Shown here: one piece after another, positions 32,352 to 64,000 of the stretch
Numbering within the stretch: position 1 is the stretch's first letter
Layout: each line of letters starts with the position of its first letter
NCBI GenBank assembly: GCA_035490535.1
Contig: DATHCP010000003.1
Coordinates: forward strand, 4,467-68,466
DNA length: 64,000 bases
Reading direction: 5' to 3'
Origin: Actinomycetota bacterium
Lineage (GTDB): Bacteria; Actinomycetota; UBA4738; HRBIN12
Notes under the pieces: model-generated
What the model was told of the DNA's origin: nothing
Database searches by the model: none
The model's input: the letters and a program-made list of their open reading frames with translations, nothing else
Translations under genes and position numbers: made by a program

Positions 32352-35300
32352 ATGGTCTGCGGGAACTGCGGAACCGACAACGGCGAAGGCCGGAAGTTCT
32401 GCATGGAGTGCGGGGCGCCGTTGGCGCTCGGCTGCCCCGTCTGCGGCAGCCAGAATCCGCCCAGGAGCAAGTTCTGCGGCGAGTGTGGCTCGCCGATCGC
32501 CTCCGCGGAGGACGCGCCGGCGACCGCAGCCGCGGCGCGCCCGGCCGCCGAGCGCCGGCTCGTGACGGTTTTGTTCGCCGACCTCGTCGGCTCCACGCGC
32601 ATGGCCGAGGGCCGCGACCCGGAGGAGGTGCGCGACCTCCTCACCCGGTACTTCGACACCGCCCGCGACGTGATCGAACGCTACGGCGGCCTGGTCGAGA
32701 AGTTCATCGGCGACGCGGTGATGGCGGTCTGGGGCACCCCGACCGCGCACGAGGACGACGCGGAGCGCGCGGTGCGCGCGGCGCTCGAGCTGCTGGACGG
32801 CGTGGAGGCGCTCGGCGAGATGGTCGGCGTGGACCTGCGGGCCCGCGCCGGGGTCCTGACCGGCGAGGCCGCCACGATGATCGGCGCGGTCGACCAGGGG
32901 ATCGTGGCCGGCGACCTGGTCAACACCGCATCCCGCCTGCAGTCCGCGGCCGAGCCCGGCACCGTCCTGGTCGGCGACGCGACGTTCCAAGCGGCCGGGA
33001 AGGCGATCACGTTCGAACGGATCGGCGACCTCGCGCTGAAGGGGAAGGAAGCGCCGGTCCCCGCGTGGCGTGCGCTCCGGATCGTCGGCGAACGCGGCGG
33101 GGTCAACCGGACCGAAGCGATCGAGCCGCCGTTCGTCGGCCGCACGGAGGAGCTCCGGTTGATCAAGGAGCTGTTGCGTGTCACCGGCACGGAGCGGAAG
33201 GCGAGGCTCGTCTCGGTCGTCGGGATCGGCGGGATCGGCAAGTCACGCCTCGCGTGGGAGTTCGAGAAGTACGCCGACGGGCTCGTGGAGGAGCTGTACT
33301 GGCACCGCGGCCGCTGCCCCGCCTATGGCGACGGCGTCACGTTCTGGGCGCTCGGCGAGATGGTGCGCATGCGTGCCCGGATCGCCGAGACCGACGACCC
33401 GGCCGCCGCCTCACGCGCGCTGGCCACCTCGGTGGCCGACCTGATCGCCGATCCCGAGGAGCGCCGCTGGATCGAGCCGCGCCTCGCGCACCTCCTCGGC
33501 CTCGAGCCCGCGCCGCCGGGCGATCGCGCCGAGCTGTTCGCCGCGTGGCGCACGTTCTTCGAGCGCATCGCCGAGCGCGGCACCACGGTGCTGGTCTTCG
33601 AGGATCTCCAGTGGGCCGACGCCGGGATGCTCGACTTCATCGAGTCGATGATCGAGTGGTCCCGGAACCTGCCGATCCTGATCGTGACGCTCGCCCGGCC
33701 CGAGCTGGCCGAACGCCGGCCCACGTGGGGCGCCGGCTCGCGCAGCCTCACCGCCTTGCACCTGGAGCCCTTGCCGGACGCAGCGATGACCCAGCTGGTC
33801 ACCGGCTTCGTCCGCGACCTTCCCGCCGAGAGCGTCGAACGGATCGTCACGCGCGCCGAGGGCGTCCCGATGTACGCGGTCGAGACCGTTCGGATGCTGG
33901 CCGACCGCGGCGTCCTGCACGCGGCCGAGGGAGCGTACGAGCCGGTGGGTGAGGTGGGTGAGCTCGACATCCCGCCCACCCTGCACGCGCTGATCGCCGC
34001 GCGCCTCGACGGGCTGGCGCCGGAGGATCGCGGCCTGCTCCAGGACGCGAGCGTGCTCGGGAAGAGCTTCACGCTCGACGGGCTCGCCGCGATCGCGGGG
34101 CTCGCGGCTCCGGAGCTGGAGCCGAGGCTCCGGGAGCTGACGCGGAAGGAGTTCCTGGAGTTGGACGCCGACCCACGCTCGCCCGAGCGTGGGATGTACA
34201 CGTTCACCCAGTCGATGATCCGCGAGGTCGCCTACGCGACGCTCGCGCGCGCCGACCGGCGCGCCCGCCACCTCGCCGCGGCCCATCACCTCGAGTCCCT
34301 CGGGGACGAGGAGCTGGCGGCGGTGGTCGCGACGCACTACGTCGAGGCCTACCGGGAATCGCCGGCGGGGCCGGAGGCCGACGCTCTGGCCGCCCGCGCC
34401 CGCGACTGGCTCTCGCAGGCCGCCGAACGTGCGACGTCCCTGGGCTCGCCCGAGCAGGCCCTCGCGTACGCGGAGATCGCGCTCGACGTCACTCCGGCGG
34501 GCACCGAGCGGGCAGCGATCCTCGAGGTCGCCGGCCGCGCGGCGGTGCACGCGGCCGAGTTCCCTCGCGCCGTTGCGTTCCTCGAGGAGGCGATCGCCAT
34601 CCTCGGCGGGATCGGGGACCTCGAGTCGGTCGCGCGTGTGACGGCCCGCCTGTGGCGCGCGCTCGCACCCCAGAACCGCCGGATCGAAGGCGCCGAGCGG
34701 ATGGAGGCCGCGCTGGCCGACCTCGGGGATGAGGGCCACGAGGAGGTCCGCGCCAAGGTCTACGCGTCGCTTGCCAGCGCGTACGTGATCACCGACGCCG
34801 CCGAGGTCGCGATCGGATGGGCGGAGCGCGCCCTGGAACTCGCCGAGCGGAACCACCTCACCGAGACGTTGGTCGAGGCGCTCGGCGCGAAGTCGCTCGG
34901 GCTGTTCAACCTGGGCCGGCATCGCGAGGCGACGATCCTGGCGCGCGGGACGCTGCAACTCGCAGAGGAGATCGGGAGCATCCGGATCGCGGGCGAGGCG
35001 TTCATGGGGATCGCGGTCTACGGCTCCGAGGACGACCCGATCGGCTCGCTCCACGCCTTCGAGGAAGCGGCCGACATGGCGCGGCGTGCCGGTGACCGTC
35101 CGCTCGAACTGGTGACGCTTCCGAACCTCGCCGAGTCCGCGATCGAGCTCGGGCACTGGCCCGAGGCGGAGGACGCGATCGCGCGCCTCGACGGCAGGGA
35201 GCTCACCCCGATGACCAGGGACAGCGTCGTGTGTTGCGAGGCGTCGCTGCTCGCGCATCGCGGCGAACCGGATCGGGCGCTCACGCGCCTGGAGAGCGTG

Positions 35301-35843: not shown

Positions 35844-35846
35844 GCG

Positions 35847-46190: not shown

Positions 46191-49100
46191 TCAGCCGGAG
46201 AGCCGATCCACCTCCGCGACCAGCGGATCCGCCCCGAGACCCGCGAAGACCTCCCGGGCGCGCGCCCGCCGGTGCGCCGCCTCGGCCCTGCCGAGGCGGC
46301 CCAGGCACCGGGCGGCGCCCAGCAGGGCACCGCCGGTGGCCGGCACGTGCCCGTAGTCGGCCCATCCCTCGGCCGCCTCGTCGAACAGGGCCGCGGCGCC
46401 CTCGTCGTCGCCGTCCGCCTCGGCGAGGGCGGCCCGCGCCGTTGCGACCGAGAGCAGGTGGCGGCGGGTGAACGTCCTCGCCCGCTCGAGGAGTCGCCGC
46501 GCGGCGTCCACGTCGCCGGCGGCGATACACAACCGCACGAGGTCGGCGATCGAGCCTTCGAGGTACCAATCGAGACGGATCTCCGTCATCGCCTCGAGCT
46601 CGGCGACGATCGCGAGCGCGTCCTGCGGCCTGCCGTCGCGCAGCGCGACGAGACCGGCCGTCACGAACGCCGGCACGACCACCTGGGCGTCGCGGAGTTC
46701 GCGACCGACCACGACCAGGTCCTCGGCGGCCGCACGCGCCTCGTCGAGGCGGCCCCGCCACAACAGGACCTGCGTGCGCCAGGGTGTGGTGAGCCCCGCG
46801 GCGTACCGCCCACCGACCTCGTCGGCGTGGCGGAGCACGTCGTCCGCGATCCGCAGCAGCTCATCCCACTCCCCCGCGTCGAACAGCGGGCCGAGGCTGG
46901 TGGTCCAGCAGCCGACGAGCATCTCGCTGAGCGCCCGGTGCTCCGCGAGTGCGGCGCCGGCCGCCGTCGCCTCGAGCGCCGGCGCGGGCCCCTCGGCGGC
47001 CCACAGCACCTCGGCGAGGATCAGCAGCACGCGCGCGTTCTCGCGGGACAGCCCGAGCCGCTCGGTCAGCTCTCGCGCTTCTCGGAGGTCGTCCAGCCCG
47101 CCGAGGTCGCCCAGGTAGCACCGGGACATGCCCCGGTAGGACAGCGCGCGCGGCCGGCTCGCCTCGGCGCCGAGCTTCCCGACGAGCTCCAGCGCGCGCT
47201 CGGAGACCTCGATCGCCTCCTCGAAGTGCCCGGTCAGCAGGTGGTCCGAGGCGATCGACGCGTAACAGTCGGCGAGCTCCGGGCCGGGCGGCTCGGCCTC
47301 GAGGTCGGCCACCGCCTGCGCGAGCAGCTCCCGCGAGCCGGCGGTGTCGCCTTGTTCCCAGCGGACGGTCGCCAGCCAGTTCTCCGCGGCGCCCGCGACC
47401 AGCCGGTCGCCGTTCGCGCGTGCGGCGGCGATCACCTCCTCGTAGGCGGCGCGCGCCTCCGGATAGCGGCCTCGATAGAACGACGCCTCCGCCTGCGCCG
47501 CGAGGATCGCCGCGCGCTCAGGCGCCTCCGCCGGCAGCGTCGCCAACGCGCGGCCGAACGAGGCGTACGCGCTGTCGACGTCCAGGCTCATCTGGCGCTC
47601 GCCGGCCATCACCCAGTACCGCCGTGTGGCGTCCTCGAGGTCGCCGACATCGGTGCGGCCGGCCGAGCGCAACAGCTCCAGGGCGCGGTCGTGATGGAAC
47701 GCGAGGACCTCGGCTTTGTCCGAGACGCGCTCGCCGGCGATCCCCTCGATCCATGCCGCCGCCGCGACGTGCTTCGCCGCCCTGGGCTCGCGCGGGATCT
47801 GGCCGTACGCGACGTCGCGGATCAGGGCGTGCGAGAACGCGTACTCGTGCTGATCCCGGATCGAGGACTCGCGCGAGCGCCGGACCAGCTCGCTCCGCAC
47901 GAGCTCGTGCAGGCGGGCCTCGACATCGGCCGGATCGGCGCCGCCGATCGCGGCCAGCGCGCCGGACCAGAAGACCTTCCCGACCACCGAGGCGTCCTGC
48001 AGCAGGAACTTCTGCTCCACCGGCAGCGTGTCCAGGCGCGCCGCGATCAGGGCCTGCAGGCTCTCCGGCGGCGTGATCTCCGGATCGCCCCCGCCGGCCG
48101 GTCCCACGAACATCCGGGCGAGCTCCTCGGCGAACAACGGGTTGCCGCCGGCGCGTTCGATCAAGGCGCCGCCGACCGCCGAGACCGTCTCTGCCGGCAG
48201 CAGCGAGGCAACGAGGCTCCGCGTGTCGGTCTCGCTGAGCGGCGCCAGCGACACCGTGCTCGCGTTGCGCGTGCCGCCGCCCCAGTTCGGCACGCGATCG
48301 AACAACTCCGGCCGCGCCGAGCACAGGATCAGCATCGGCCCGACGCTCCATTCGACGAGGTACTCCACGAACGCGAGCAGCGCGTCGTCGGCCCAGTGCA
48401 GGTCCTCGAGCACGACGACGAGCGGCCAGTGCGCCGCGACCGCCTCCAGGAACCGGCGCCAGGCGCTGAACGCCTCGGTGCGATCGGCCCCCTCGGACTG
48501 CGGCTCGTCCAGTCCGATCAGCGGCGCGAGGCGTCCCCGGACCCAGCCGCGCTCGCCCGGATCGTCCACGACCGCCTCGACCGTGGCGGTCAGCTTCGCG
48601 CGGGCCTCGGCGGCGTCGTCCGATTCGAGGATGCCGGCCTGCGCCTTCACGACCTGCCCCAGCGCCCAGAACGTCACGCCCTCGCCGTAGGACAGGCTCC
48701 GCCCCTGCCGCCAGGCGATCACCTCGGGAAGGTCGTCGAGGTAGGTGAAGAACTCGCGGATCACCCGGCTCTTGCCCACGCCGGGCTCGCCCATCAGGGT
48801 CACCAGCTGCACCGAGGGCTCGCGAACCGCGCGGGCGAACGTCCGCTTCAGCAGCTCGAGCTCGTCCTCGCGGTCGACCATCGGGGTCGAGCTCCGATCG
48901 AGCATCTCCGCGCCGAAGCGGCTCCGCGCCGATCGCGCGACCCAGATGTGCAGCGGCTTCGCCTTGCCCTTGACCTCGACGGGTTCGACCTCGTCGAAGT
49001 CGAAGGCCTCGGCCGTCAAGCCGTGCGCGCGCTCGCCCACGATCACGCCGCCGACGGGCGCGACCGTCTGCAGCCTGGAGGCGGTGCTCACCACGTCCCC

Positions 49101-49484
49101 GACCGCGATCCCCTGCTTCGTCCGATCGGCGCCGACGGCCACCACGGCCTCGCCGGTCTCCACCCCGATCCGGACCTGGAGGTTCAGCTCGGGCTGCGAC
49201 TCGTTCAGGACCTCGATCGCCGGGGGGATCCGCAGCGCGCTCAGCAGCGCGCGCTGCGCGTCGTCCTCGTGGGCGACCGGCGCGCCGTAGACCGCCATCA
49301 CCGCGTCGCCGATGTACTTCTCCACGACGCCGCCGAACCGCTCGATCTCGCGCGAGACGGTGGCGTGGTAGGTGGCCAGCGCGTCGCGGACGTCCTCGGG
49401 GTCGGCCAGGTCGAACGTCGCGGTGAAGCCCACGAGGTCGCAGAACAGGATCGTGACGACCTTGCGTTCGACGCTGCTGCCCAC
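46191..49484 (-). CDS. Class III nucleotidyl cyclase-like / AAA-ATPase / TPR-like multidomain (STAND-type) protein, paralog 2 (no Zn ribbon)
   Basis: 1097 aa. The cyclase-like domain shows ILFCDLVGFT, YIGDAVMAVYG and VVSTASRLQ, so Ser replaces the usually conserved Asn. The P-loop is MGEPGVGKSRVI, and helical repeats follow. It has the same architecture as 32352..35843. Confidence 0.85.
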   Translation of the reverse strand: MGSSVERKVVTILFCDLVGFTATFDLADPEDVRDALATYHATVSREIERFGGVVEKYIGDAVMAVYGAPVAHEDDAQRALLSALRIPPAIEVLNESQPELNLQVRIGVETGEAVVAVGADRTKQGIAVGDVVSTASRLQTVAPVGGVIVGERAHGLTAEAFDFDEVEPVEVKGKAKPLHIWVARSARSRFGAEMLDRSSTPMVDREDELELLKRTFARAVREPSVQLVTLMGEPGVGKSRVIREFFTYLDDLPEVIAWRQGRSLSYGEGVTFWALGQVVKAQAGILESDDAAEARAKLTATVEAVVDDPGERGWVRGRLAPLIGLDEPQSEGADRTEAFSAWRRFLEAVAAHWPLVVVLEDLHWADDALLAFVEYLVEWSVGPMLILCSARPELFDRVPNWGGGTRNASTVSLAPLSETDTRSLVASLLPAETVSAVGGALIERAGGNPLFAEELARMFVGPAGGGDPEITPPESLQALIAARLDTLPVEQKFLLQDASVVGKVFWSGALAAIGGADPADVEARLHELVRSELVRRSRESSIRDQHEYAFSHALIRDVAYGQIPREPRAAKHVAAAAWIEGIAGERVSDKAEVLAFHHDRALELLRSAGRTDVGDLEDATRRYWVMAGERQMSLDVDSAYASFGRALATLPAEAPERAAILAAQAEASFYRGRYPEARAAYEEVIAAARANGDRLVAGAAENWLATVRWEQGDTAGSRELLAQAVADLEAEPPGPELADCYASIASDHLLTGHFEEAIEVSERALELVGKLGAEASRPRALSYRGMSRCYLGDLGGLDDLREARELTERLGLSRENARVLLILAEVLWAAEGPAPALEATAAGAALAEHRALSEMLVGCWTTSLGPLFDAGEWDELLRIADDVLRHADEVGGRYAAGLTTPWRTQVLLWRGRLDEARAAAEDLVVVGRELRDAQVVVPAFVTAGLVALRDGRPQDALAIVAELEAMTEIRLDWYLEGSIADLVRLCIAAGDVDAARRLLERARTFTRRHLLSVATARAALAEADGDDEGAAALFDEAAEGWADYGHVPATGGALLGAARCLGRLGRAEAAHRRARAREVFAGLGADPLVAEVDRLSG

Positions 49485-49535: not shown

Positions 49536-50483
49536 CTAGGCCGGCTCGGCCACCCAGCGCATCGGGTCGCCGGCCCCGAGGTCCTCCACCCCGGCGTCGA
49601 TCAGCGCGCCGGCCACGAGCGTGCGCCGGTGCGCGGCGAACGTCAGGACGTGCGCGATCATGCCGCCGTAGGTGAAGACCTCCGGGTCCTCGCAGATCGC
49701 GTCCACGAAGGTCTCGTCCAGGCGCCCCTCGTCCCCGACCGTCCGGACCCGCTCGAGGAAGGCGGATCCTTCCCGGTCGAGGCGTGCCCGCATCGATGCG
49801 ATCGACTCATGCTGCTCGACGTCCCAGTCGTACGGTCGGCCGTCGATCGCCGCGTTCCACATCGCCATCTGCCCGACCAGCCGCGACAGGAGCGACCGCA
49901 ACGTCGGATCGTCGTCGACCCCTTCGACCGAGATCCGGATCGGCTCGTCGAGCTGCGCGTCGCTCAGCGTGCCGGCACGCGTGATCATCTCGCCGACGAG
50001 CCAGACGTGGTGCTCCACCATGCGGTTCAGCAGGTCCATCGGACCCTCCTTCGTTCGTGCGGGCAGCCGCAGGCTGCCCGGCGGATGGAAGTGCACGCCG
50101 CTCGGCGCGTCCAACTGGAACCGGCGGGGCTCGCGTCGCCACGCGGCGGGCGCGGCGCCGTAGGAACGGGCGAAGGCCCGCGTGAACGCCTCGTTCGAGC
50201 CGTAGCCGGCCTCGATCGCGACGTCCAGGACGGAGCGATCCGTCGTCACCAGCCGGTAGGCGGCCCGCTCCAGGAGCACCCGCCGGCGGAACGCGCCCGG
50301 CGGCTCACCGGCCGTCGCCGCCACCACGCGATCGAGGTGGTACCGCGAGAGGTGGACGCGGGCGGCAAGGTCGGCTCCGGAGGCCTCGTGATCGTCCAGG
50401 GCCGAGGACAGGACCTCGACGAAGGAGCGGAAGGTGTCGGTCGCGGTGCTCACGTCCCCATCCTCGTCGAGTCGCCCGTTCAC
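49536..50483 (-). CDS. AraC-family transcriptional regulator fused to a DinB/YfiT-like C-terminal domain
   Basis: 315 aa. The N-terminal HTH_AraC region is LSRYHLDRVV...LDVAIEAGYGSNEAFTRAFARSYGAAP. The C-terminal region of about 170 aa has a four-helix-bundle-like His-containing segment (VEHHVWLVGEM...). It is divergent from the putative RiPP operon. Confidence 0.75.
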   Translation of the reverse strand: MNGRLDEDGDVSTATDTFRSFVEVLSSALDDHEASGADLAARVHLSRYHLDRVVAATAGEPPGAFRRRVLLERAAYRLVTTDRSVLDVAIEAGYGSNEAFTRAFARSYGAAPAAWRREPRRFQLDAPSGVHFHPPGSLRLPARTKEGPMDLLNRMVEHHVWLVGEMITRAGTLSDAQLDEPIRISVEGVDDDPTLRSLLSRLVGQMAMWNAAIDGRPYDWDVEQHESIASMRARLDREGSAFLERVRTVGDEGRLDETFVDAICEDPEVFTYGGMIAHVLTFAAHRRTLVAGALIDAGVEDLGAGDPMRWVAEPA

Positions 50484-50582: not shown

Positions 50583-50873
50583 ATGTCGAAGGCAGATGAC
50601 GACGAGGTCTCACTCGTCGACTTCGTGAACGACCTTGCCGACGATCCGGAGCTGGAAGCGCTCTTCGATCTCGAGCCCATCGCGGTGATGATGGAGCGCG
50701 GCCTGAGCGTCGATCAGCAGGCGCTGCTGATGGGCGGCACCGCCGGCGAGATCCGCGACGAGCTGAACCGCGAGCTCGAGAGCAGCGACGCGACCGGCGC
50801 GGTCGCGTTCGTGATCAAGATGCTGAAGCCGGTCGTCATCAAGATGAAGCCGGCGCCGGGTGGCGACCACTGA
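50583..50873 (+). CDS. Candidate RiPP precursor peptide (acidic helical leader plus hydrophobic core with duplicated VIKM(L)KP motif); putative split-borosin substrate
   Basis: 96 aa with a strong RBS. The leader is MSKADDDEVSLVDFVNDLADDPELEALFDLEPIAVMMERGLSVDQQALLMGGTAGEIRDELNRELESSDATG, and the core is AVAFVIKMLKPVVIKMKPAPGGDH. Its stop overlaps the start of the downstream TP-methylase-fold gene. Confidence 0.55.
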   Translation: MSKADDDEVSLVDFVNDLADDPELEALFDLEPIAVMMERGLSVDQQALLMGGTAGEIRDELNRELESSDATGAVAFVIKMLKPVVIKMKPAPGGDH

Positions 50874-51618
50874 GCGGCCCGTCACCGGCTCCCTGACGAT
50901 CGTCGGCTCCGGGATCCGGCCGGGGCTGCACACCACGAGCGAGGCGCGGGCCAGGATCGTGCGCGCCGACAAGGTCCTCTACCTGCTCGCCGAGCCCGCT
51001 CCCACCACGTGGATCGAGAAGCTCAACCCCTCGGCCGAGTCGCTGACGCATCTGTACGAGTCCGACCGCACGCACGACGAGGTCTACGAGGCGCTCGTGG
51101 AGGCGATGCTCGTTCCGGTCCGTGCGGGACTCGACGTCTGCATGGTGACGTACGGCAACCCCGCGGTGTTCGACGAGTCCTCGCACGAGGCGGTCCGGCG
51201 GGCGCGCGCCGAGGGCTATCCGGCGAAGATCCTTCCGGGGGTCTCGGCGCTCGACTGCCTGTTCGTCGACCTCGGCGTCGACCCCGGCCGCCACGGGCTG
51301 CAGACCTACGAGGGGTCCGACTTCGCGCTCGGGGACTTCACGCCGAACGTGCGCGTGCCGCTGGTCCTGTGGCAGATCAGCGTGATCGGGAACACCCGCA
51401 CCGGCGGCTCCGTGAACGTCGACGGGCTGCGCGTCCTCGCCGATCGGCTGGCCGAGCACTACGGCGCCGACCACGAGGTGACGATCTACGAGGCCACCCC
51501 GTTCCCGGTCGGCCGCCCGCTGATCGAACGCTGTGCCGTGCGCGCGCTGCCCGAGGCGGGCGTGACCGGGCTCTCCACCCTCTACGTGCCGCCGCTCGTG
51601 GTTCGGGCGGCCGGCTGA
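50860..51618 (+). CDS. Tetrapyrrole-methylase-fold SAM-dependent methyltransferase, OphMA/SonM-like (putative peptide backbone alpha-N-methyltransferase)
   Basis: 252 aa with a GTG start 14 nt inside the precursor ORF. The motifs SLTIVGSGI, GLDVCMVTYGNPAVF, ILPGVSALDCLFVDLGVDP, GLQTYEGSDF, LVLWQISVIGN, EHYGADHEVTIYEA and GLSTLYVPPL align, by my recollection, with the borosin N-methyltransferase catalytic domain (OphMA: GLDVVGVFYGHPGVF, LPGVSAEDCLFADLCIDP, CLTYEASDF, LVLFQVGCVGI, EYGAEHPVVHY, VSTFYIPP). Membership of the TP_methylase fold is secure. The borosin sub-assignment is inference. Confidence 0.65.
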   Translation: MATTERPVTGSLTIVGSGIRPGLHTTSEARARIVRADKVLYLLAEPAPTTWIEKLNPSAESLTHLYESDRTHDEVYEALVEAMLVPVRAGLDVCMVTYGNPAVFDESSHEAVRRARAEGYPAKILPGVSALDCLFVDLGVDPGRHGLQTYEGSDFALGDFTPNVRVPLVLWQISVIGNTRTGGSVNVDGLRVLADRLAEHYGADHEVTIYEATPFPVGRPLIERCAVRALPEAGVTGLSTLYVPPLVVRAAG

Positions 51619-53139: not shown

Positions 53140-53790
53140 GTGGAACGGTCGGAGCGGTCCTTCTGGGCCACGTGGCACGACGACTACGACGACCCGGGCT
53201 CGGACCTCTCCCAACGTCTGATCGCCGTCCAGCGCCGACTCTCCGACGCGATCGACGCGCGGGCTGGCGAGGTCCGCGTCATCAGCGCCTGCGCGGGGCA
53301 GGCACACGACGTCCTCGGCGTGCTCGAGGGCCACCCGCGTGCGTCGGAGGTGCACGCCTGGCTCGTCGAGTCCGACGATCACAACGCCGGGGTCGCGCGT
53401 CGTCGAGCCGAAGCCGCGGGCCTGACGCAGGTTCGCGTGCTCCACGCGGACGCCGGGATCACCGGCACCTACCGGGACGCGGTGCCCGCCGACGTCCTGC
53501 TGCTCTGCGGGATCTTCGGCAACGTCACCGACGAGGACCTCCGTCGGCTCGTGACGAACGCCTCGAGGCTGTGTGCACCGCACGCGACGGTGTTGTGGAC
53601 GCGGCATCGGCGTGAGCCCGATCGGTCGGAGGACGTCCGAGCGTGGTTCGACGAGGCGGGCTACGAGGAGATCGCGTTCGATTCGCCCGGACCGGACCGG
53701 TTCGCCCTGGGGACGGTCCGCCTGACGGCGCCGCCCTTGCCGTACACACCCGATCTCCGGCTCTTCGCGTTCAGGGTGTGGGAGGGGTGA
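53140..53790 (+). CDS. Putative class I SAM-dependent methyltransferase
   Basis: 216 aa, 10 nt after the S51 gene. VISACAGQAHDVLGVLE, VLHADAGI and DVLLLCGIFGNVTDEDL resemble a Rossmann-like MTase core. The assignment is moderate. Confidence 0.5.
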   Translation: MERSERSFWATWHDDYDDPGSDLSQRLIAVQRRLSDAIDARAGEVRVISACAGQAHDVLGVLEGHPRASEVHAWLVESDDHNAGVARRRAEAAGLTQVRVLHADAGITGTYRDAVPADVLLLCGIFGNVTDEDLRRLVTNASRLCAPHATVLWTRHRREPDRSEDVRAWFDEAGYEEIAFDSPGPDRFALGTVRLTAPPLPYTPDLRLFAFRVWEG

Positions 53791-55943: not shown

Positions 55944-56369
55944 CTAGTCCTCGTCGGGACGGCGCAGCTGCTTCGTCCGCGAGCGCCGCTTCTTGTCGGC
56001 CAGCCGGCGTTCGTTCGCGGCCCGGCTCGGCCTCGTTGCCTTCCGCGACGGGGGTGGCGGCGCGATCGCGCGGGCCAGCGTCTCCGCGAGCCGGTCGCGG
56101 GCCGCCTCGCGGTTCTGCAGCTGCGAGCGGCGTGAGGAGGCGACGATCGTCAGCACGCCGTCGTGGAGGCGCCGGCTCAGACGTTCCAGCGCGCGGGCGC
56201 GCTGCACGGGTCCGAGCGAGGGCGACCGCGCGACGTCGAAGCTCAGCTCCACGCGCGAGTCGGCCGTGTTCACACCCTGGCCGCCCGGGCCGGACGCGTG
56301 GCTGAACCGCCACCGGAGCTCACGCTCCGGGATCAGGACCGAACGCGACACCCGCAGCGGACCTGCCAC
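55944..56369 (-). CDS. arfB: Alternative ribosome-rescue factor / peptidyl-tRNA hydrolase ArfB
   Basis: GTG start chosen at 56369 (VAGPLRVSRSVLIPERELRWRFSHASGPGGQGVNT). It has a GGQ motif, and a basic C-terminal tail (RRLADKKRRSRTKQLRR) typical of ArfB. The longer track ORF would overlap the divergent gene at 56452. Confidence 0.8.
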   Translation of the reverse strand: MAGPLRVSRSVLIPERELRWRFSHASGPGGQGVNTADSRVELSFDVARSPSLGPVQRARALERLSRRLHDGVLTIVASSRRSQLQNREAARDRLAETLARAIAPPPPSRKATRPSRAANERRLADKKRRSRTKQLRRPDED

Positions 56370-56451
56370 GACCGCAGTATGCCCGTCGGTCGCGACGAAC
56401 CAGGGACGAACGACCCCAACCGTGGCGGGGGGCACCCGGAACGATGGCGCC

Positions 56452-56856
56452 ATGACCGGAACGCGCACCGTGGGGCTGATCGCGATCAAGGCCGTGCATT
56501 CGGTCCTGTTCTTCGCGATCGGTGGCTGCTTGGTGTACTTCTTGATCGCCGGGTTCGCGCGGCGTTCGGATCGACGCGCGGCGCTCGCCGGCGCCGTGGT
56601 CGCCGGGGAGGCAGCGATCTACGCCGTGAACGGGATGCGCTGCCCCCTCACGGATCTGGCCGAGGACCTCGGCGCCGAGGATGGCTCGGTCGCCGACATC
56701 TACCTGCCCGGGCCACTGCGGCGGAACCTGCCGGTCATCACCGGTCCGATGTTCGCGCTCGCCCTCGCGCTGCACGCGCGCAACCTCGTGCGGGCCGGTC
56801 CATGGCCTACGATGGACCGACCCGACCGAAGGAGCCCGCGATGCGATGGATCGTGA
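56452..56856 (+). CDS. Hypothetical membrane protein
   Basis: Start at the ATG at 56452. It has three TM helices (LIAIKAVHSVLFFAIGGCLVYFLIAGF, ALAGAVVAGEAAIYAV, ITGPMFALALALHA). Confidence 0.45.
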   Translation: MTGTRTVGLIAIKAVHSVLFFAIGGCLVYFLIAGFARRSDRRAALAGAVVAGEAAIYAVNGMRCPLTDLAEDLGAEDGSVADIYLPGPLRRNLPVITGPMFALALALHARNLVRAGPWPTMDRPDRRSPRCDGS

Positions 56857-57212
56857 CCCTGGCCGTGACGGGCCTGTTGCTCGCCGCGCCGATGGAGGCC
56901 TCGGCGAGCCACCGTCCGAACACGTACTGCAGCGTCACCGGCGACATCTGTCAGAGCACCGCGCGGGTCCACGGCGTGCGGATGCTCCGGGTCTCGCTGG
57001 CCGCGAAGTTCTTCTCCCGATACACGCTGTGCGTGACGGCGCCGGACAGGACCACGACCTGTCGGAACTTCAAGATCCACTCCACCGGCATCACCTTCGG
57101 CTCCTCGATCGTGTGGAAGAACCATTTCCCGCGGAAGGGACCGGGTGCCTACACCGTGGTGTGGAAGAGCGGCGGCGCGCGCGTCGGTCACGTCCTGGGC
57201 TTCCACCAGTAG
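56841..57212 (+). CDS. Secreted Cys-containing hypothetical protein
   Basis: Start at the ATG at 56841 with a GAAGGAGC RBS. It has a signal peptide (MRWIVTLAVTGLLLAAPMEASA) and four Cys residues. It is about 123 aa. Confidence 0.5.
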   Translation: MRWIVTLAVTGLLLAAPMEASASHRPNTYCSVTGDICQSTARVHGVRMLRVSLAAKFFSRYTLCVTAPDRTTTCRNFKIHSTGITFGSSIVWKNHFPRKGPGAYTVVWKSGGARVGHVLGFHQ

Positions 57213-57213
57213 C

Positions 57214-57585
57214 TCAGAGCTGCGCGAGCAGCTCGATCGGGAACGGCGGCTGCGCGAGCGGCCGAACCGCGAGCCGGAACAGCAGCAGCGGGTTGTCGTC
57301 GCCGGCGGAGCGGTTCAGGTGCAGCTCGTCGCATCCGGTGCAACGGTGGATCAGCACCCATTCGCCGTCGCCGCGGACCGCGATCGCGATCGGCTCCATC
57401 AGCGACCCGCAGATCGCGGCGCGGTCGCCGGGATCGTCGTCGACGTGCCGGCTCCACAAGCAGTTCGGGCAGTGGTTGCGATGCGCCGAACCGACGGCGT
57501 CGGTGGAGACGTCCAGACGGCAATGGCCGCAACGGAACGAACGGAGCCGCTCGTCGCGGGGATGGCCGCGTCGGTCGCGTGCCAT
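57214..57585 (-). CDS. RNHCP domain-containing protein (Zn-ribbon-like)
   Basis: 123 aa. It contains the literal RNHCPNC motif plus flanking Cys pairs (CGHC...CPNC...CGSL...CTGC). Confidence 0.7.
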   Translation of the reverse strand: MARDRRGHPRDERLRSFRCGHCRLDVSTDAVGSAHRNHCPNCLWSRHVDDDPGDRAAICGSLMEPIAIAVRGDGEWVLIHRCTGCDELHLNRSAGDDNPLLLFRLAVRPLAQPPFPIELLAQL

Positions 57586-57800
57586 GGGTGGACCTCCGGG
57601 TAGATGGTGGACACAGGGCGCCGTGGCCCGGAGGTTCGGATCGCCCTAGCGGGCGTGCGAACGGGTGCCGAGGCACGACGGAACGACCACCGTCACAGCG
57701 ATCATCAAGCCACCGCCTCCCGTTCTGGCCGCGCGTGTCCGCGGCGGATGCGACCGTACCAACCGAGAGCCCGGCGCGCAACGGTGTGTACGGTGAACCG

Positions 57801-58691
57801 ATGGGAGCCCGGTCGCCCGAACGCGTCGAGGTCTCGCGGCCCGACAAGCTGCTGTGGCCCGCGCTCGGCATCACGAAGCGCCGCTACGTCGATTACCTGG
57901 AGGCGGTCGCGCCCCGCATGGTGCCGTGGCTGCGCGGCCGGCCGCTCACGGTGGTGCGCGGCCCCGACGGCGTCGACGGTGAGCGGTACTTCCAGAAGGC
58001 CGCCTCGAAGCACACGCCGCCCTGGATCCGCACGGTGCGGATCCCGGCGCCCAGCGCGAAGCGCGACGTCGACTACGTGGTCTGCGACTCGGCGGCGGCG
58101 CTCGCCTGGCTCGGCAACCAGGCCGCCCTCGAGTTCCACCCCGCGCCGGTGCGCGCCGACCGGCTCGATCGCCTCGATCTGCTGACCGTGGACCTCGATC
58201 CACCCGAGGGTGCGTTCGAAGCCGCCGCCGAGGTCGCGCTGGAGGTGCTCGAGGTGTTCGGGGAGCTCGGCATGGAGGCCGGCGTGAAGACGACGGGCGG
58301 CAAGGGCCTGCACGTCGTGGCGCCGATCGAGCGGCGGCTGTCGCAGCCGGAGCTCCGCGCAGCCGCGTCGGCGCTCGCGCGGATCGTCGAGGGCCGGATG
58401 CCCGGGAAGATCACGGAGGAGTTCCGTAAGGCCGACCGCGGCGGGCGCGTGCTCCTCGACCCCTCGCGCAACGGCGCGGGCGCGACGATCGTAGCCCCGT
58501 ACTCGCCGCGCGAACGTCCGGAGGGCACCGTCTCCTTCCCGCTCACGCCCGAGCAGCTCGGCTCGGTCCGGCCGGCGGACTTCACGATCGCGACGGCGCC
58601 GGGGCTGCTCGACGGCCCGGGGCCGCGCCGCTGGGACGCGCTCGTCTCGGCGCGGTCCCGCGTACCGAGGGAGCTCCTGACCCGGAAGTAG
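57801..58691 (+). CDS. Stand-alone LigD-type NHEJ polymerase/primase domain protein (PolDom)
   Basis: Start at the ATG at 57801. RPDKLLWPALGITKRRYVDYLEAVAPRMVPWLRGRPL, ERYFQK, DLDP (catalytic Asp residues) and TTGGKGLHVV are archaeo-eukaryotic-primase-type LigD Pol motifs. Confidence 0.8.
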   Translation: MGARSPERVEVSRPDKLLWPALGITKRRYVDYLEAVAPRMVPWLRGRPLTVVRGPDGVDGERYFQKAASKHTPPWIRTVRIPAPSAKRDVDYVVCDSAAALAWLGNQAALEFHPAPVRADRLDRLDLLTVDLDPPEGAFEAAAEVALEVLEVFGELGMEAGVKTTGGKGLHVVAPIERRLSQPELRAAASALARIVEGRMPGKITEEFRKADRGGRVLLDPSRNGAGATIVAPYSPRERPEGTVSFPLTPEQLGSVRPADFTIATAPGLLDGPGPRRWDALVSARSRVPRELLTRK

Positions 58692-58692
58692 G

Positions 58693-59341
58693 TCAGGATC
58701 CGTCGGCCGGATCGGCCGGCGGCGTGTCGACCGGCGCCGCGACCGGCGGGGGCGCCTCGGCAGGCGCCGGCGCCTTCTTCCGCCCGGGGAACTGGTCGAC
58801 CTCGGTCTCGTCCCAGACCGTGCTGTTCTTGCCGATCGACTCGACGTTGAACTGGTACTCGAACACCAAGGTGCCGCCGTAGCCGGCGCCGAACAGCACG
58901 AGGGCGGCGGCGATCACCGACAGGCCGGTCACGACCCCGGAGGACTTCCCGTCGTGCAAGGACCCGAGCCGGATCACGAGGTCGGCGATCACGAGCACGG
59001 TGACCGTGAGCATCACGGTCATGTGCCAGTTCGCCGTACGCCAGACCTGGGTGTGCTGGGCCGTGCCGAGGGTTCCGCCCTTCCGGCGGGGCAGCCCCTT
59101 CCACCAGTCCCAGAACCCCGTGAGGATCGTGCCGAGCGACACCACGAACCCGACGACCAGGACCAGGGTCGCGGCGATGAAGAAGTCGTGCGCCACCGCG
59201 GCATCGTTGCGTCCGCCGATCACCGAGACCAGGTCGAACAGGGCCGCGAGCGCGTAGCACACGACCGGAAAGTCGGTCAGCGGCGGATGGGTCGGCTTGC
59301 CCGACCACCCCCGGATGCCGAAGAACCTCCGGCCCTTCATG
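58693..59341 (-). CDS. DUF2231-like integral membrane protein
   Basis: Start at the ATG at 59341 (MKGRRFF). It has four TM helices and a C-terminal Pro/Ala-rich tail. The assignment is by general resemblance only. Confidence 0.5.
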
Positions 59342-59536
59342 GTCCAGGTCGGACGGATCGAGAAGTACCTCGGCACGACGCTCTCCCTCCCTCGCACGGC
59401 TCCTGCCCCGAAGCCTTACCCGTCGGCGGGCGCGTGGCAACCGAGCCGGGCCGCCGGAGGGCTCAACCCTTGCCCTCGCCGCGACGAACACCCTCGCAGG
59501 TGTCGGTTCGCGAACGGGCGGGAGACTGGTAGGGAG

Positions 59537-60985
59537 ATGTTCCAGCTGCGGCACCCTTCCCCGGTCGCGGTCGACGCCGGCATCCCGCCGGACGCGCCGC
59601 GGCGTTCCCCCCACCGCTCCCTCCCTCGCACGCTCGGTCACGTCCTGGTCGTCGCCGCGACGTTCCTGGTGATCGCCGCCTCTTCGATCGCCTTCGGCCT
59701 GCGGGTGACGCCGCTGCGCTCGGTCTCGGCGCTGGGTCAGACCGTGGCGGTCGGGGTGACCACTCCCTCGTTCAGCCTCTCCGGCCCCGGCGAGGTCGAC
59801 CTGTTCGGCCAGCCCCTTCCCACGAAGGTCCGCTTCCTCGGCCCGGTCCGGCCGCGGCTCGTCCTGACGAACATCACGATCAACCAGCAGGTCGCCGGCC
59901 TGTTCGCGCCGGGCAGCGGCGACGGCGCTGCGGCGCGGCTCGGCGACCTGCTCGCCGGCGCATGGCGCCGCTACTTCGTGTCCGAGATCGCGTTCGTGGC
60001 GCTCGGGGCGTTGCTGCTCCTCGGGGCCGTCGCGGGCTGGCGACGGCACGCGTGGACCTGGCGGCGGACCGTCGCGACGATCGCCGGGGGGCTGGTGCTG
60101 GTGGAGGCGCTCAACGTCGGCGTGATCATGCTGACCGCCTACACGGCGCCAGGACGCTTCCACGACGTGCACTCCCTGGGCGAGCTGGTCGGGCAGAGCG
60201 AGCAGGGGCCGATCGCCGCCGCGCCCGGTCCCGCGCTGCCCGGGGTGCAGGCCGTGGTCCTCGGGGATTCGACGGCCGCGGGCCTCGGCGAACCGCCGGT
60301 CCCGGGCGCCACGCCGGTCGACCAGGCGTGCGGGCGGAGCGTGGATGCCTACGCCGAGCACCTGGCCGACGTGAACCGCTGGCGCGTCGAGAACCTCGCA
60401 TGCAGCGGCGCGACGATCCAGGCCGGCGTGCTGGGGCCGCAGGACGTCGACGGGAAGCTGCTGTCGGCGCAACTCGCGGTGGCCAAGCGCGCCGTCGCCG
60501 CCTCGACGATCATCGTGAGCGTCGGCGCCAACGATCTCCAGTGGGGCCCGATGATCCGGCTCTGCGCGATCTCGGACCGCTGCGACGACCGAGCGTCCAC
60601 CGTGTTCTTCCAGCGATCGCTCGCGTTGTTCACGCGCGACTACTACGAGCTGCTCCGGCAGCTGGCCGCGCTGCCCCGCGACCCCCAGGTGCTGATCAAC
60701 CTCTACTACTCGCCGTTCGACACGAGCGCCGACTGCCTGCCCGGCCTCACCCCCGCGAAGATCGGGGTGCTGCTCGCCCGGCTCGATGCGCTGAACGCGG
60801 TCCTCGCGCAGGGCGCCGCGACCTTCGGGTACCTCGCGACCCAGCCCGACTTCAGCGGGCATGGTGCCTGCGGGCCGCAGTCCTACGTCCAGGGCATGGA
60901 CGACCCCGCGCCGTTCCATCCGAACGCCCGCGGCCAGCTCGTGATCGCGCTCGCGGACGAGCGCGCCCTGCTGGGCGCGCCGTAG
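59537..60985 (+). CDS. SGNH/GDSL hydrolase family protein with N-terminal membrane region
   Basis: Start at the ATG at 59537 with an AGGGAG RBS. Block I is VVLGDSTAAGLG (GDS), and further matches are ACSGATI, GANDL and a C-terminal HPNARGQ (the catalytic His region). Confidence 0.7.
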   Translation: MFQLRHPSPVAVDAGIPPDAPRRSPHRSLPRTLGHVLVVAATFLVIAASSIAFGLRVTPLRSVSALGQTVAVGVTTPSFSLSGPGEVDLFGQPLPTKVRFLGPVRPRLVLTNITINQQVAGLFAPGSGDGAAARLGDLLAGAWRRYFVSEIAFVALGALLLLGAVAGWRRHAWTWRRTVATIAGGLVLVEALNVGVIMLTAYTAPGRFHDVHSLGELVGQSEQGPIAAAPGPALPGVQAVVLGDSTAAGLGEPPVPGATPVDQACGRSVDAYAEHLADVNRWRVENLACSGATIQAGVLGPQDVDGKLLSAQLAVAKRAVAASTIIVSVGANDLQWGPMIRLCAISDRCDDRASTVFFQRSLALFTRDYYELLRQLAALPRDPQVLINLYYSPFDTSADCLPGLTPAKIGVLLARLDALNAVLAQGAATFGYLATQPDFSGHGACGPQSYVQGMDDPAPFHPNARGQLVIALADERALLGAP

Positions 60986-61047
60986 CCCGGTTGACCCGCG
61001 CGCGCCGGGCGCGCGATGCTGCGGGCACGCGAACAGGGAGGGGTCCC

Positions 61048-61440
61048 ATGCGAGCTCGAGCGGTGCTGTCCATCGTCGCCGTCGCGGCGGTCTGCGGTGC
61101 GATGCTGCTGTCCGGGATCGCGGCCGGCGTCACGAAGGCCGCGACCACCGTCACGATCAAGGCCCAGAACGGCGACTTCTCCGGCACGATCAGCTCGCCG
61201 CGGCCGAAGCGCTGCGCGAACAACCGGACGGTGAAGGTCTACCACCAGAAGGGGAAGGACCAGAACCTCAAGGTGGACACGGTGATCGGCAGCGACATCT
61301 CGTCGTTGAACGGCGACCACTACGAGTGGTCGACCGGGAACTCGGGCGCGCCGAACGGCAAGTACTACGCGCGCGCGGTCGCGACGGCGAACTGCAAGGC
61401 CGACTCGAGCCCCACCGTCAAGAACGTCAGGAACCCGTAG
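61048..61440 (+). CDS. Small secreted hypothetical protein
   Basis: Start at the ATG at 61048 with a CAGGGAGGGG RBS. It has a signal peptide (MRARAVLSIVAVAAVCGAMLLSGIAAG) and a beta-rich mature region with two Cys. Confidence 0.5.
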   Translation: MRARAVLSIVAVAAVCGAMLLSGIAAGVTKAATTVTIKAQNGDFSGTISSPRPKRCANNRTVKVYHQKGKDQNLKVDTVIGSDISSLNGDHYEWSTGNSGAPNGKYYARAVATANCKADSSPTVKNVRNP

Positions 61441-64000
61441 CGGGGGTCGGCTCGCCCAGGCGCGTCAGCCGCTCCCGGACGTGCCCCGCCTGGAGCGTGT
61501 TCCCTTTCGCCTCGAAGAGCGCTAACGCCTCGCGGGCCGCCTCGACCGCCTCCTCGGTCCGGCCGGCGAGCTCGAGGACCTCGGCGAGCGCGACCCGGGC
61601 ATCCGCTCGGTCGGAGGGGAAGTCCGTCTCGTCCACGATCGCGATCCCGCGTCGCGCGGTTGCTTCGGCTTCGTCGAAGGCGCCTCGGCGTGCGGCGACC
61701 ATCCCCTGAACGCCGAGCCCGATCACCAGCTCCGCGATGCCGTAGCTCTCACGCTTGATCGCCTCCGACGCAGCCCGGTCGGCCTCGTCGTAACGACCGA
61801 GCGCGTACAGCGCCTGGGCACGGAAGGCGGACACGATCCCGACGGCGTCCGAGCCCATCTCCTGGAGTCGTCCGACGGCCTCCCCGAGGATCCGATCCGC
61901 CTCGGCCGCGTTCCCGGACAGGAGTTCGAGCAATCCGATCTGCTGCGATCCGTGGGCGAGCGGGAGGTCCCGGCCGAGTTCACGCAGCCGGCGATCGCTC
62001 TCCTCGATCCGCGCCCGGGCGCCGGCGAGGTCGCCGCGCATCATCAGGACGGTTCCCATCGACGCGGAGATGTCGCGCTCCGCGACCGGGATCCCTCGCG
62101 CCTCCTTCGCGAGCGCCCCGAGGGCGCGGATCGCCTCGTCGGTGTGCATCGGCCCCCACGGCCCGACGGACGAGAGCCAACCGAGCTCCTCGCCGTACAT
62201 GAAGCGGTCCCCGGCGTCGCGGAACAGGTCCGCCGCCCGACGCCACCGCGGCTCCGCCTCGGCCGCACGGCTCGCGCTCCAGGCGATGTCCCCCAGGACC
62301 GTCCAGGCGAACGCCTCACCGAGGATGTCGCCCGCATCCGTGAGGATCGGGAGGCACTCCTCGACGTCGCGCTGGACCTGATCCCGGTCGGGCCGTCCCC
62401 ACGACCGGATCAGCGCCCGGAGGACGCGGGCACGGGCGACGATCGCCTCGGCTCCCTCGGCGCGGGCGATATCGACGGCTCTGGTCGCCGCGGCTTCTCC
62501 TCGCTCCAGCTCGCCCCGCTCGGCGTACGCCATCGCGAGATCCGTGAGCACCGGAACCAGCGCCGGATCCGCGGGCCCCATCAACGAGATCGCCCGGGTC
62601 ATCAACGTCACGGCGGCCGGCATGTCGCCCCGGTCGTAGGCTGCCTTGCCGGCGGCGCGCAGCGACGCCGCAGCGCGTTCGGCGAGCGCGGCCACGCGAC
62701 CCGGATCCGTGCCGAGCTCCTCGAGGTAGCGACAGGCTCGTTCGAGGTGGTACCCGATCAGCTCCTGCTGCTGCGGCGCACGCTCCGCCAGCCAGCCCGC
62801 GAACCGCTCGTGCATCTCGGCCCGTGACGTCTTGGTCAGGCCGTCGTAGGCGGCATCGCGGATCAGCAGGTGACGGAACGCCAGGGCCTCGGCACCGATC
62901 AGGTCCGATCGCTCGGGGCGCACGAACTGCTTGCGCACGAGCGAGTTCACGCGGCTCGCGATCTCCGGATCATCGGAGAGGGCGCGGAGCGCGTCCGGAT
63001 AGAAGACCTGCCCGATCACGCTCGCGGCCAGGAGCGTGTCGCGGTCTCCGGTGTCGAGTCGGTCGATCCGCGCGGCCAGCAGCGCCGAGGTCGTCGGCGG
63101 GATCGCGAGCTCGCCCAGGTCTCCGACGGCGCTCCAGACGTCGTCGATCACCGCGAGCCGTCCCTCGTCGATCAGCATCGCGAGCATCTCCTCGGCGAAC
63201 AACGGGTGTCCTTCGGCCGCGCTCGCCACGCGGGTCCGGACGTCGTCGGAGACGGACTGGACGGCGAGGAGGTTCGCCACGAGCTCGGCGCATTCCTCGT
63301 CGGACAGCGGTTCGAGGGAGATCGAGGTCGCGTTCAGCTTGCCGCCGCCCCAGGCCGGGCGGACCTCGAGCAGCTCGGGCCGGGCCATGCAGGCGAGCAG
63401 GACCGGCGCGTCGACCGACCAGTCAGCCACGTGCTCGATCAACGCGAGCATCGTCGGCTCGGCCCACTGGACGTCGTCGATCAGGAACACCAGCGGCCGC
63501 TCGCTGGCGATCGACTCCAGCAGGCGACGGATCGCCCACAGCGTCTCCTCGGGGCTGACCTCCTCGCCCTCGATGCCGAGGACCTGCGCGACCTGTGCCG
63601 CGATCCGGTCGCGGTTCGCGTCGTCGTGCACGAGCGCGGCGATCCGATCGTGGACCTCGGCCGGCGTCTCGCCGCCGGCCAGCCCGGCGGCCTGCCGGAC
63701 CGCCTCGACGACCGGCAGGAAGGTGATCCCGTCACCGTATGGAAGGCACCGGCCGCGGAGCACGGTCGCCCGGTCGCCCAGCGCGACCACGAACGCCTCG
63801 AGCAGGCGCGACTTCCCGACGCCACCGACGCCGAGAACCGTGAAGAGCTGGCACGCATGGTCGGAGACCGTGCGATCGAACGCGTCGAGCAACAGCGACA
63901 GCTCGCGTTCGCGTCCGACCATCGGGGCGTCGAGCCGCCGCGCGAAGCCCGCGGCGGCCGGATCCACCTTCGAGACCCGATAGGCGACGAGCGGCTCGTC
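61427..64000 (-). CDS. Cyclase-associated AAA-ATPase / TPR-like (STAND-type) protein, paralog 3 (partial; N-terminus beyond the right edge)
   Basis: The reading frame continues upstream of the apparent GTG at 63967 (DEPLVAYRVSKVDP...). MVGRERELSLL plus the P-loop VLGVGGVGKSRLL and helical repeats match the post-cyclase region of the two other paralogs. A cyclase-like domain presumably lies outside the window. Confidence 0.8.
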   Translation of the reverse strand, partial: DEPLVAYRVSKVDPAAAGFARRLDAPMVGRERELSLLLDAFDRTVSDHACQLFTVLGVGGVGKSRLLEAFVVALGDRATVLRGRCLPYGDGITFLPVVEAVRQAAGLAGGETPAEVHDRIAALVHDDANRDRIAAQVAQVLGIEGEEVSPEETLWAIRRLLESIASERPLVFLIDDVQWAEPTMLALIEHVADWSVDAPVLLACMARPELLEVRPAWGGGKLNATSISLEPLSDEECAELVANLLAVQSVSDDVRTRVASAAEGHPLFAEEMLAMLIDEGRLAVIDDVWSAVGDLGELAIPPTTSALLAARIDRLDTGDRDTLLAASVIGQVFYPDALRALSDDPEIASRVNSLVRKQFVRPERSDLIGAEALAFRHLLIRDAAYDGLTKTSRAEMHERFAGWLAERAPQQQELIGYHLERACRYLEELGTDPGRVAALAERAAASLRAAGKAAYDRGDMPAAVTLMTRAISLMGPADPALVPVLTDLAMAYAERGELERGEAAATRAVDIARAEGAEAIVARARVLRALIRSWGRPDRDQVQRDVEECLPILTDAGDILGEAFAWTVLGDIAWSASRAAEAEPRWRRAADLFRDAGDRFMYGEELGWLSSVGPWGPMHTDEAIRALGALAKEARGIPVAERDISASMGTVLMMRGDLAGARARIEESDRRLRELGRDLPLAHGSQQIGLLELLSGNAAEADRILGEAVGRLQEMGSDAVGIVSAFRAQALYALGRYDEADRAASEAIKRESYGIAELVIGLGVQGMVAARRGAFDEAEATARRGIAIVDETDFPSDRADARVALAEVLELAGRTEEAVEAAREALALFEAKGNTLQAGHVRERLTRLGEPTPATGS

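Follow-up and report, generated by a model that had tools for sequence, protein, structure and literature searches.

We analysed a 64,000-nucleotide stretch of an Actinomycetota bacterium genome (NCBI GenBank assembly GCA_035490535.1, contig DATHCP010000003.1, positions 4,467 to 68,466 of the forward strand; hereafter the window, numbered from its first letter), with emphasis on three large genes, G1, G2 and G3. These are separately transcribed genes for cytoplasmic one-component signalling enzymes of one very large family, in which a nucleotidyl cyclase domain of class III, usually placed after one or two zinc ribbons, is combined with a MalT/PH0952-like STAND NTPase and a lineage-specific TPR-like sensor. 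By sequence comparison the three are ancient paralogs and not the product of a local expansion. We favour, with moderate confidence, the view that they carry out sensor-gated, oligomerisation-activated synthesis of a cyclic nucleoside monophosphate (cNMP) for regulation.

All three genes are real. Long open reading frames (ORFs) with coding-type GC content at third codon positions (GC3, 0.90-0.95) occupy the coordinates in Table 1, as a preliminary description of this DNA, made from the letters alone, had reported. In G1, Pfam recognises the double zinc ribbon (DZR, E 1.9e-9; Zn_Ribbon_1, E 7.9e-12, in two stretches), a Guanylate_cyc domain (PF00211; E 1.8e-21, 77 bits against a cut-off of 21.9), an AAA_16 domain at residues 260-444 (E 3.7e-20), with Walker A GIGGIGKS at residues 291-298 and Walker B ED at 417-418, and a TPR_12 match. 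G2 lacks a zinc ribbon, and because its frame extends upstream of the GTG start for only 17 open codons there is no space for one. G3 is truncated by the window rather than complete, because its frame stays open to coordinate 64000, although the ORF list gives a closed 846-aa ORF with a GTG start at 61427..63967 (-). Its part in the window starts at residue 204 of 1060 and retains about 12 residues of the cyclase C-terminus, and a Pfam scan of these 857 residues detected no cyclase domain. Over the 857 residues, G3 is 100% identical to P0121, a 1060-aa database protein; the precomputed annotation of the N-terminal part of P0121 gives a single zinc ribbon (PF13240, CGNCG...CPACG) and a PF00211 cyclase, and its cyclase motifs are ILFTDMVGST, EKFIGDAVLAV and GDPVNVAARLE. 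From this identity we infer that the cyclase and single zinc ribbon of G3 lie beyond coordinate 64000.

The order of cyclase, ATPase and TPR region is found in G1 and G2, and in G3 via P0121, so that the layout which had been ascribed to all three genes holds within the window for the first two, with the G3 cyclase falling outside it. The motifs FADLVGST, IGDAVMAV and TASRLQ, previously given as common to the three, are those of G1 and nearly those of G2 but not those of G3. A P-loop (GxGKSR) is present in all three, and Pfam scans of G1, G2 and the window part of G3 detected no helix-turn-helix (HTH) family, in agreement with the preliminary description. Its assignment of these proteins to the STAND NTPases also holds: a NOD (NBD-HD-WHD) followed by a repeat sensor, the arrangement that characterises this group, is present.

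Table 1. Coordinates of G1, G2 and G3 and of their domains in the window
Feature	Coordinates	Strand	Description
G1	32352..35843	+	complete, 1163 aa; ORF and translation, Pfam, identical database protein P0001
G1 double zinc ribbon	32358..32489	+	residues 3-46, four CxxC motifs
G1 class III nucleotidyl cyclase domain	32559..33050	+	residues 70-233
G1 NOD (NBD-HD-WHD)	33114..34271	+	
G1 C-terminal TPR-like sensor	34272..35840	+	all-helical, residues 641-1163, without HTH
G2	46191..49484	-	complete, 1097 aa, GTG start; identical database protein P0241
G2 class III cyclase	48942..49463	-	Guanylate_cyc E 4.1e-23, 82.3 bits against a cut-off of 21.9
G2 AAA_16 NTPase	48351..48875	-	E 1.8e-19
G2 TPR/MalT-like sensor	46194..47687	-	TPR_12 E 1.3e-17, TPR_MalT E 5.8e-11
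G3	61427..64000	-	3' 857 codons of a 1060-aa gene; frame open to the window edge
G3 AAA_16 NTPase	63422..63922	-	E 1.3e-21
G3 TPR sensor	61430..62743	-	TPR_12 E 1.3e-14

An AlphaFold2 model of G1, based on an alignment of G1, G2, G3 and 114 homologues (alignment A1, 117 sequences), has a pLDDT of 90.9 and a pTM of 0.79, with disordered linkers at residues 52-63 and 246-253 and TPR-like helices up to the C-terminus. When it was compared with the PDB by Foldseek, the best match was the STAND protein PH0952 (6mfv; E 5.9e-15 over 787 columns), next came class III cyclases (TM score 0.8-0.92 on the target) and then Avs3; among STAND proteins the model also resembles MalT. The cyclase domain thus has the class III fold. 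For the NOD, no PDB relative was found at the sequence level, and its matches are at the fold level only.

In class III cyclases the second of the two substrate-specifying residues is Asp in classes IIIa and IIIc, Thr in class IIIb and Cys or Gly in guanylyl cyclases. In alignment A1 (columns in G1 numbering), wherever the residue is aligned, the metal-binding Asp residues of FxDxxGxT and GD are present in 115/117 (D77) and 117/117 sequences (D121), the base-contacting Lys of EKFIGD is invariant (117/117), as is the Arg of ASRL, and the transition-state Asn is found in 112, including G1 and G3. G2 has Ser at this position (GDVVSTASRL), likewise found in 4 of the 37 members of its lineage. The second specificity position, seven residues before the Asn, is Met, Ile, Leu or Val throughout (Ile in G1 and G2, Met in G3), and neither canonical pair, Lys with Asp or Thr and Glu with Cys or Gly, occurs in the 117 sequences. 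The former pair specifies ATP and the latter GTP (PMC1262709). In the NTPase, the G294, G296 and K297 of Walker A (GxGKS/T) and the D418 of Walker B ([ED]D) are invariant, with Ser or Thr at position 298 and Glu or Asp at position 417. The zinc ribbon is more variable: four CxxC motifs are present in 41/41 members of the G1 lineage and two in 33/39 of the G3 lineage, while in the G2 lineage 19 of the 37 members have two and 17 have none. The zinc ribbon had been taken to single out G1, and its double ribbon is indeed there, but full-length G3 has a single one and ribbons are common in the family.

BLASTP identities between the three proteins are 41% for G1-G2 (782 aa), 36% for G1-G3 and 34% for G2-G3, and similarity between the genes at the DNA level is limited to short patches of 65-71% identity. 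Full-length orthologues with the same architecture from metagenomes and from soil genomes of Actinomycetota, Chloroflexota and Dormibacterota, among the matches listed, are 53-79% identical to G1, 49-67% to G2 and 43-66% to G3; at least 120 orthologues of G1 have equal length and architecture, and the relatives that a metagenome scan with P0121 gave are no more than 58% identical to it. A neighbour-joining tree of the 117 sequences (562 cyclase and NOD columns) separates the three lineages, each with 50/50 bootstraps, and each clade takes in orthologues from other phyla. Within lineages, identities are 64-73% for the cyclase, 61-69% for the NOD and 39-47% for the C-terminal sensor, as against 43-48%, 35-41% and 20-22%, respectively, between lineages. 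Because of the 34-41% mutual identity, the separate clades and the closer orthologues in other phyla, G1, G2 and G3 are judged to be ancient paralogs. The preliminary description had instead seen in them a local expansion, with tandem-like duplication as a possible origin, and had proposed a phylogeny as a check; the phylogeny points to ancient paralogs rather than recent duplications, which is essentially the outcome that it had itself named as speaking against its proposal.

A scan of species-representative genomes gave at least 600 matching stretches, of which the best 80 loci were studied with 10-kb flanks. These 80 come from metagenome-assembled genomes (MAGs) of soil bacteria, namely Actinomycetota (Actinomycetes, Gaiellales, Solirubrobacterales and Acidimicrobiia), Chloroflexota (Limnocylindria and Chloroflexia), Dormibacterota and Methylomirabilota, and the nearest genome among them is OY969099.1 (68% to G1). 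When G2 was compared with 1.84 billion representatives of 50%-identity clusters, 19,108 matched at E<=1e-30 and 70,777 at E<=1e-10, and the best 150 of the 19,108 align with G2 over its full length. Some family members in this library have N-terminal extensions of 250-330 aa, which are lacking in the window genes. The family is a known one of very common, already catalogued soil-bacterial signalling proteins, for which the public annotation is 'class 3 adenylate cyclase/tetratricopeptide (TPR) repeat protein'.

The presence of three copies in 64 kb can be compared with the family's density elsewhere. Flanking DNA from 81 homologous loci, 1.12 Mb in all, contains 12 further family genes, or one per ~93 kb, and 10 of these 12 sit in head-to-tail tandem arrays; the Poisson probability of at least two extra copies in 60 kb, a rough and flank-based estimate, is ~0.14 or ~0.01 depending on the density used. 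The two nearest relatives (L002 and L003) each have another, different paralog less than 10 kb from the G1 orthologue, the loci of G2 and G3 orthologues have no other family member within 10 kb, and the arrangement of paralogs is not conserved among the loci compared. The co-location of G1, G2 and G3 in 32 kb most likely reflects the high copy number of the family, and not duplication or a shared operon. Unlike in the window, true tandem expansion of the family does occur elsewhere. Arrays of 2-4 genes, ~3.5 kb apart, were observed in L023 (9086..19583), L068 (2..12853), L069 (10001..20087) and L081 (10001..16449), which are loci in MAGs of Gaiellaceae, Gaiellales and Actinomycetes, with 3-4 genes in the Gaiellaceae loci L023, L068 and L069.

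Class III cyclases have an obligately dimeric active site. Because such sites form only across the dimer, control of the cyclase by a STAND switch could operate through induced proximity, and because G1, G2 and G3 do not end in a LuxR/GerE HTH the cyclase is the one output open to them. STAND proteins switch from an ADP-bound closed monomer to an ATP-bound open multimer once an inducer binds the sensor (PMC6468293). By analogy, a protein at rest would be kept monomeric, and its cyclase off, by the sensor together with the closed, ADP-bound NOD. Binding of a lineage-specific ligand or partner protein to the TPR sensor would lead to exchange of ADP for ATP, opening of the NOD and multimerisation, and the multimers would pair the cyclase domains into catalytic dimers that synthesise a cyclic nucleotide. 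This signal would then be read by separate cNMP-binding regulators, such as CRP-like factors and cNMP-binding histidine kinases. Each of the three copies would feed a different input into second-messenger pools that are shared or alike, and the separateness of the inputs is supported by the sensor identities, which between lineages drop to ~20%. Given the invariance of the base-contacting Lys, cAMP is the probable product.

Of 161 related loci, 13 have a gene for a cNMP-binding protein close to a family member (a raw count, obtained with the L002 and L083 proteins described next as the two queries). The G1 orthologue of L002 is followed, after 5 nt, by the start of a CRP-like gene (cNMP_binding and HTH_Crp_2, 13495..14253), and in L083 a 129-aa cNMP_binding protein (8593..8982) is encoded 1 kb from the G2 orthologue. 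A cNMP_binding-HisKA-HATPase_c kinase follows directly after a cyclase-AAA_16-TPR gene in L130 (13475..14896) and L124 (5082..6503), according to Pfam, and the same placement is seen, by position and similarity, in L126, L127 and L132. Other examples are a cNMP_binding-HATPase_c-CoA_binding protein in L141 (7397..9262), a CRP-like protein in L096 (6421..7074), an MFS protein with cNMP_binding in L122 and a small cNMP_binding protein in L049. By their domain content these neighbours are regulatory receivers, and not the TIR or transmembrane (TM) effectors of Pycsar.

Several points weigh against regulatory, oligomerisation-activated cNMP synthesis. No cNMP-binding gene was found in the 64-kb window. 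The hydrophobic second specificity residue leaves the product not established, and G2 may be a weak enzyme owing to its Ser in place of Asn. The activation mechanism proposed for members without an HTH is drawn by analogy with other STAND proteins. A further proposal, that proteins combining a zinc ribbon, cyclase, STAND and TPR region without an HTH are widespread, unstudied intracellular receptors of soil Actinomycetota and Chloroflexota, in which STAND oligomerisation assembles the cyclase site, the pair of Lys and hydrophobic residue yields a non-canonical product and the role may be immunity-like surveillance rather than housekeeping regulation, appears improbable to us.

The cyclase-like domain might instead be a non-catalytic module for nucleotide binding or dimerisation, which would make these proteins ATP-sensing scaffolds or adaptors. 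The lack of the canonical Asp or Thr specificity residue in all 117 sequences and the Ser of G2 are in line with this, as is a solved class III cyclase-like ATP-binding protein (6yii) that its PDB title annotates as a transcriptional regulator, and inactive cNMP cyclase domains have been reported in other multidomain conflict systems (PMC7159879). However, of the six canonical catalytic residues, five show no or almost no variation among the three lineages, whose cyclases are only 43-48% identical, as would be expected of an active enzyme; class IIIb cyclases are active without the Asp, and cNMP receptors are encoded beside family genes in relatives. We therefore regard loss of catalysis as rather unlikely. 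A role as immune sensors of the NLR or Avs type, in which the TPR region senses a phage protein, the STAND module oligomerises, the cyclase makes a cNMP alarm and the killer effector is encoded elsewhere, is likewise unlikely in our assessment. It draws on the matches of PADLOC PycC models to the cyclase domains (G1, E 5.5e-19; G2, E 3.1e-16), on the fold similarity to Avs3 (8dgc, E 7e-10) and to plant and animal NLRs, on the several paralogs with strongly diverged sensors, and on the repeated shifts of STAND clades between defence and non-defence roles that PMC13581612 describes. But the PycC matches do not exceed the generic Pfam cyclase match in strength (66 against 77 bits) and were rejected as evidence for Pycsar since they reflect only the common fold, and the NTPase and sensor regions, those of G3 included, have no match among the PADLOC models. 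The 64 kb contain no defence, phage or mobile-element genes and no adjacent cNMP-binding TIR or TM effector, the cNMP-binding proteins encoded beside family genes in relatives are histidine kinases and regulators of the CRP type, and each lineage is represented in several phyla by full-length orthologues that keep a constant size, unlike defence genes with their typically patchy distribution. The hint at defence in the preliminary description consequently finds no support here.

Duplication and divergence within the 32-kb region, giving a functionally linked cluster, could account for three family members in 64 kb, and the head-to-tail arrays of 3-4 members in L023, L068 and L069 offer a precedent. 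This is contradicted by the low pairwise identity and by the well-separated clades with orthologues from other phyla; moreover, the three genes differ in strand and N-terminal architecture and have 10-12 kb of unrelated genes between them, G2 and G3 orthologues in other MAGs stand without a further member within 10 kb, and the extra paralogs near the G1 orthologues of L002 and L003 are different genes at different positions. Recent expansion is thus extremely unlikely. G2 might also be a regulator tied to a locus for a small peptide resembling ribosomally synthesised and post-translationally modified peptides (RiPPs), with a neighbouring 96-aa ORF and TP_methylase gene as partners, by analogy with TOMM systems. 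The best NCBIfam match of all three proteins is TIGR03903, a TOMM kinase/cyclase fusion (E 1e-51 to 1e-60), and the pair of small ORF and TP_methylase gene is conserved beside the G2 orthologue in L083. These matches, however, reach 205.7, 200.6 and 174.5 bits against a cut-off of 705.75 and cover the cyclase-NOD core without a kinase, no cyclodehydratase, dehydrogenase or other RiPP enzyme is encoded in the window, and the synteny is seen in one relative only, which makes such a tie very unlikely.

The surroundings of G1, G2 and G3 are an ordinary chromosomal context with housekeeping neighbours. The window has ~72% GC and a coding-frame GC3 of ~0.92, and the three genes are of native composition. 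A rough gene call gave 69 genes, nearly all of which were scanned with Pfam. Directly upstream of G1 are genes for an Opp-type ABC transporter, DJ-1/PfpI and AhpC, and the window also contains histidine utilisation genes, a xanthine-dehydrogenase-like cluster and trehalose-6-P synthase, as well as genes for GNAT, PfkB kinase, an ABC-2 transporter, DinB, a lipoprotein phosphoesterase, TP_methylase, peptidase S51, RF-1-domain, RNHCP, LigD PrimPol, DUF2231 and GDSL lipase proteins. Each of the three genes had been described as flanked by secreted or envelope genes. Some neighbours do have signal peptides or TM segments, which makes this trivially true, but others are cytoplasmic (DJ-1, AhpC, GNAT, PfkB, AraC, TP_methylase, peptidase S51 and LigD PrimPol). 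No integrase, transposase, phage or known defence gene was found by Pfam in the 64-kb window, and Rfam and tRNA scans of the window returned no RNA genes. The neighbourhood of G1 is common to its closest relative only (L002, with a 79% identical G1 orthologue), and no partner gene is conserved across the other loci; synteny, the second check proposed earlier, therefore does not extend beyond the nearest relative.

Next to G2, an AraC-family HTH regulator gene (49536..50483, -) lies on the strand of G2 and stops 51 nt upstream of the G2 start. It may be co-transcribed with G2, and it is absent at the G2 orthologue locus L083. Divergent from G2, at 50583..51618 (+), the 96-aa ORF, which has no Pfam match, overlaps the start of the TP_methylase-family gene by 14 nt. 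Its counterpart in L083 (8975..9937) is a 75-aa ORF with 53% identity, and the N-terminus of the 96-aa peptide may resemble a Nif11/NHLP-type leader.

PADLOC was run on 10 unannotated neighbours, and its sole match was a weak, partial one to mad2, by a 216-aa ORF without Pfam match at 53140..53790 (+) (E 6.4e-8, profile positions 271-431 of 492). This probably reflects merely a methyltransferase-like fold, with no further MADS components close by. Genes for an RF-1-domain (ArfB-like) protein, an RNHCP-domain protein and a stand-alone LigD primase-polymerase are clustered at 55944..58691; no Ku or ligase domain was detected near them, and a linkage of the RF-1 and PrimPol genes is seen in L063 too, with 66% identity each. 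A 948-aa ORF with an ATG start at 58073..60919 (-) was considered as a fourth giant gene and rejected: it has no Pfam match, lies antisense to the better-scoring DUF2231 and GDSL lipase genes and is a spurious high-GC ORF. Towards the upstream end, in the first third of the window, there are two Ion_trans_2 (K+-channel-like) genes (3..752, -, and 13408..14493, +) and two OsmC-like genes (802..1200 and 10173..10706).

The outcome of this analysis is corrective: there is neither a local expansion nor a defence island, and the G3 cyclase lies outside the window. The mildly unusual features, namely a hydrophobic residue at the specificity position, zinc ribbons at the N-terminus and the cyclase as sole output domain, are family-wide and not specific to this window, which is no better an entry point than thousands of other loci. 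The family is enormous (~19,000 clusters at 50% identity) and is conserved in several soil phyla. Control by a STAND switch of an enzyme that has its active site only as a dimer is a testable idea, and induced-proximity activation or an unusual nucleotide, if true, would be of interest to both the second-messenger and the NLR fields.

The combination of cyclase, ATPase and TPR region has been described in mycobacteria since 2004. Castro et al. are said to have reported in 2005 that one such protein, Rv0386 of Mycobacterium tuberculosis, uses Gln and Asn as its substrate-specifying residues. Non-canonical specificity residues are thus a feature of both Rv0386 and G1, G2 and G3, which have Lys with a hydrophobic residue instead. 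Rv0386, Rv1358 and Rv2488c, presented in two sources (bioRxiv 10.1101/2024.03.06.583649; PMC2447327) as a class III cyclase, an ATPase, a TPR region and a LuxR HTH, are the closest described architecture, likened to ours by the same order of cyclase, STAND/MalT-like ATPase and TPR region, and both groups belong to Actinomycetota. Unlike the Rv0386 type, G1, G2 and G3 have no C-terminal LuxR/GerE HTH, and there are N-terminal zinc ribbons in G1 (two) and G3 (one). As they are without the defining HTH, they are not members of the LAL regulator group, although they probably share its STAND switch.

MalT of Escherichia coli and PH0952 of Pyrococcus horikoshii are STAND transcription factors with TPR/SUPR sensors, a likeness that extends to the TPR_MalT match in G2, but the effector in G1, G2 and G3 is an N-terminal cyclase and not a DNA-binding domain. 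The resemblance to Avs3 lies in the architecture of STAND and TPR sensor. The defining features of Pycsar and Avs, an adjacent cNMP-activated effector or a defence neighbourhood, are absent here, and the cyclases are closer to purine cyclases than to PycC. With TIGR03903 the three proteins have the cyclase-NOD core in common (profile positions ~280-900 of 1267), but they lack its N-terminal kinase. AfsR of Streptomyces (SARP-NOD-TPR), whose TPR region is reached by profile search (8k60, E 1.6e-11), is likewise an Actinomycetota STAND protein with NOD and TPR regions, and its effector is an N-terminal SARP DNA-binding domain, whereas in G1, G2 and G3 the effector is the cyclase.

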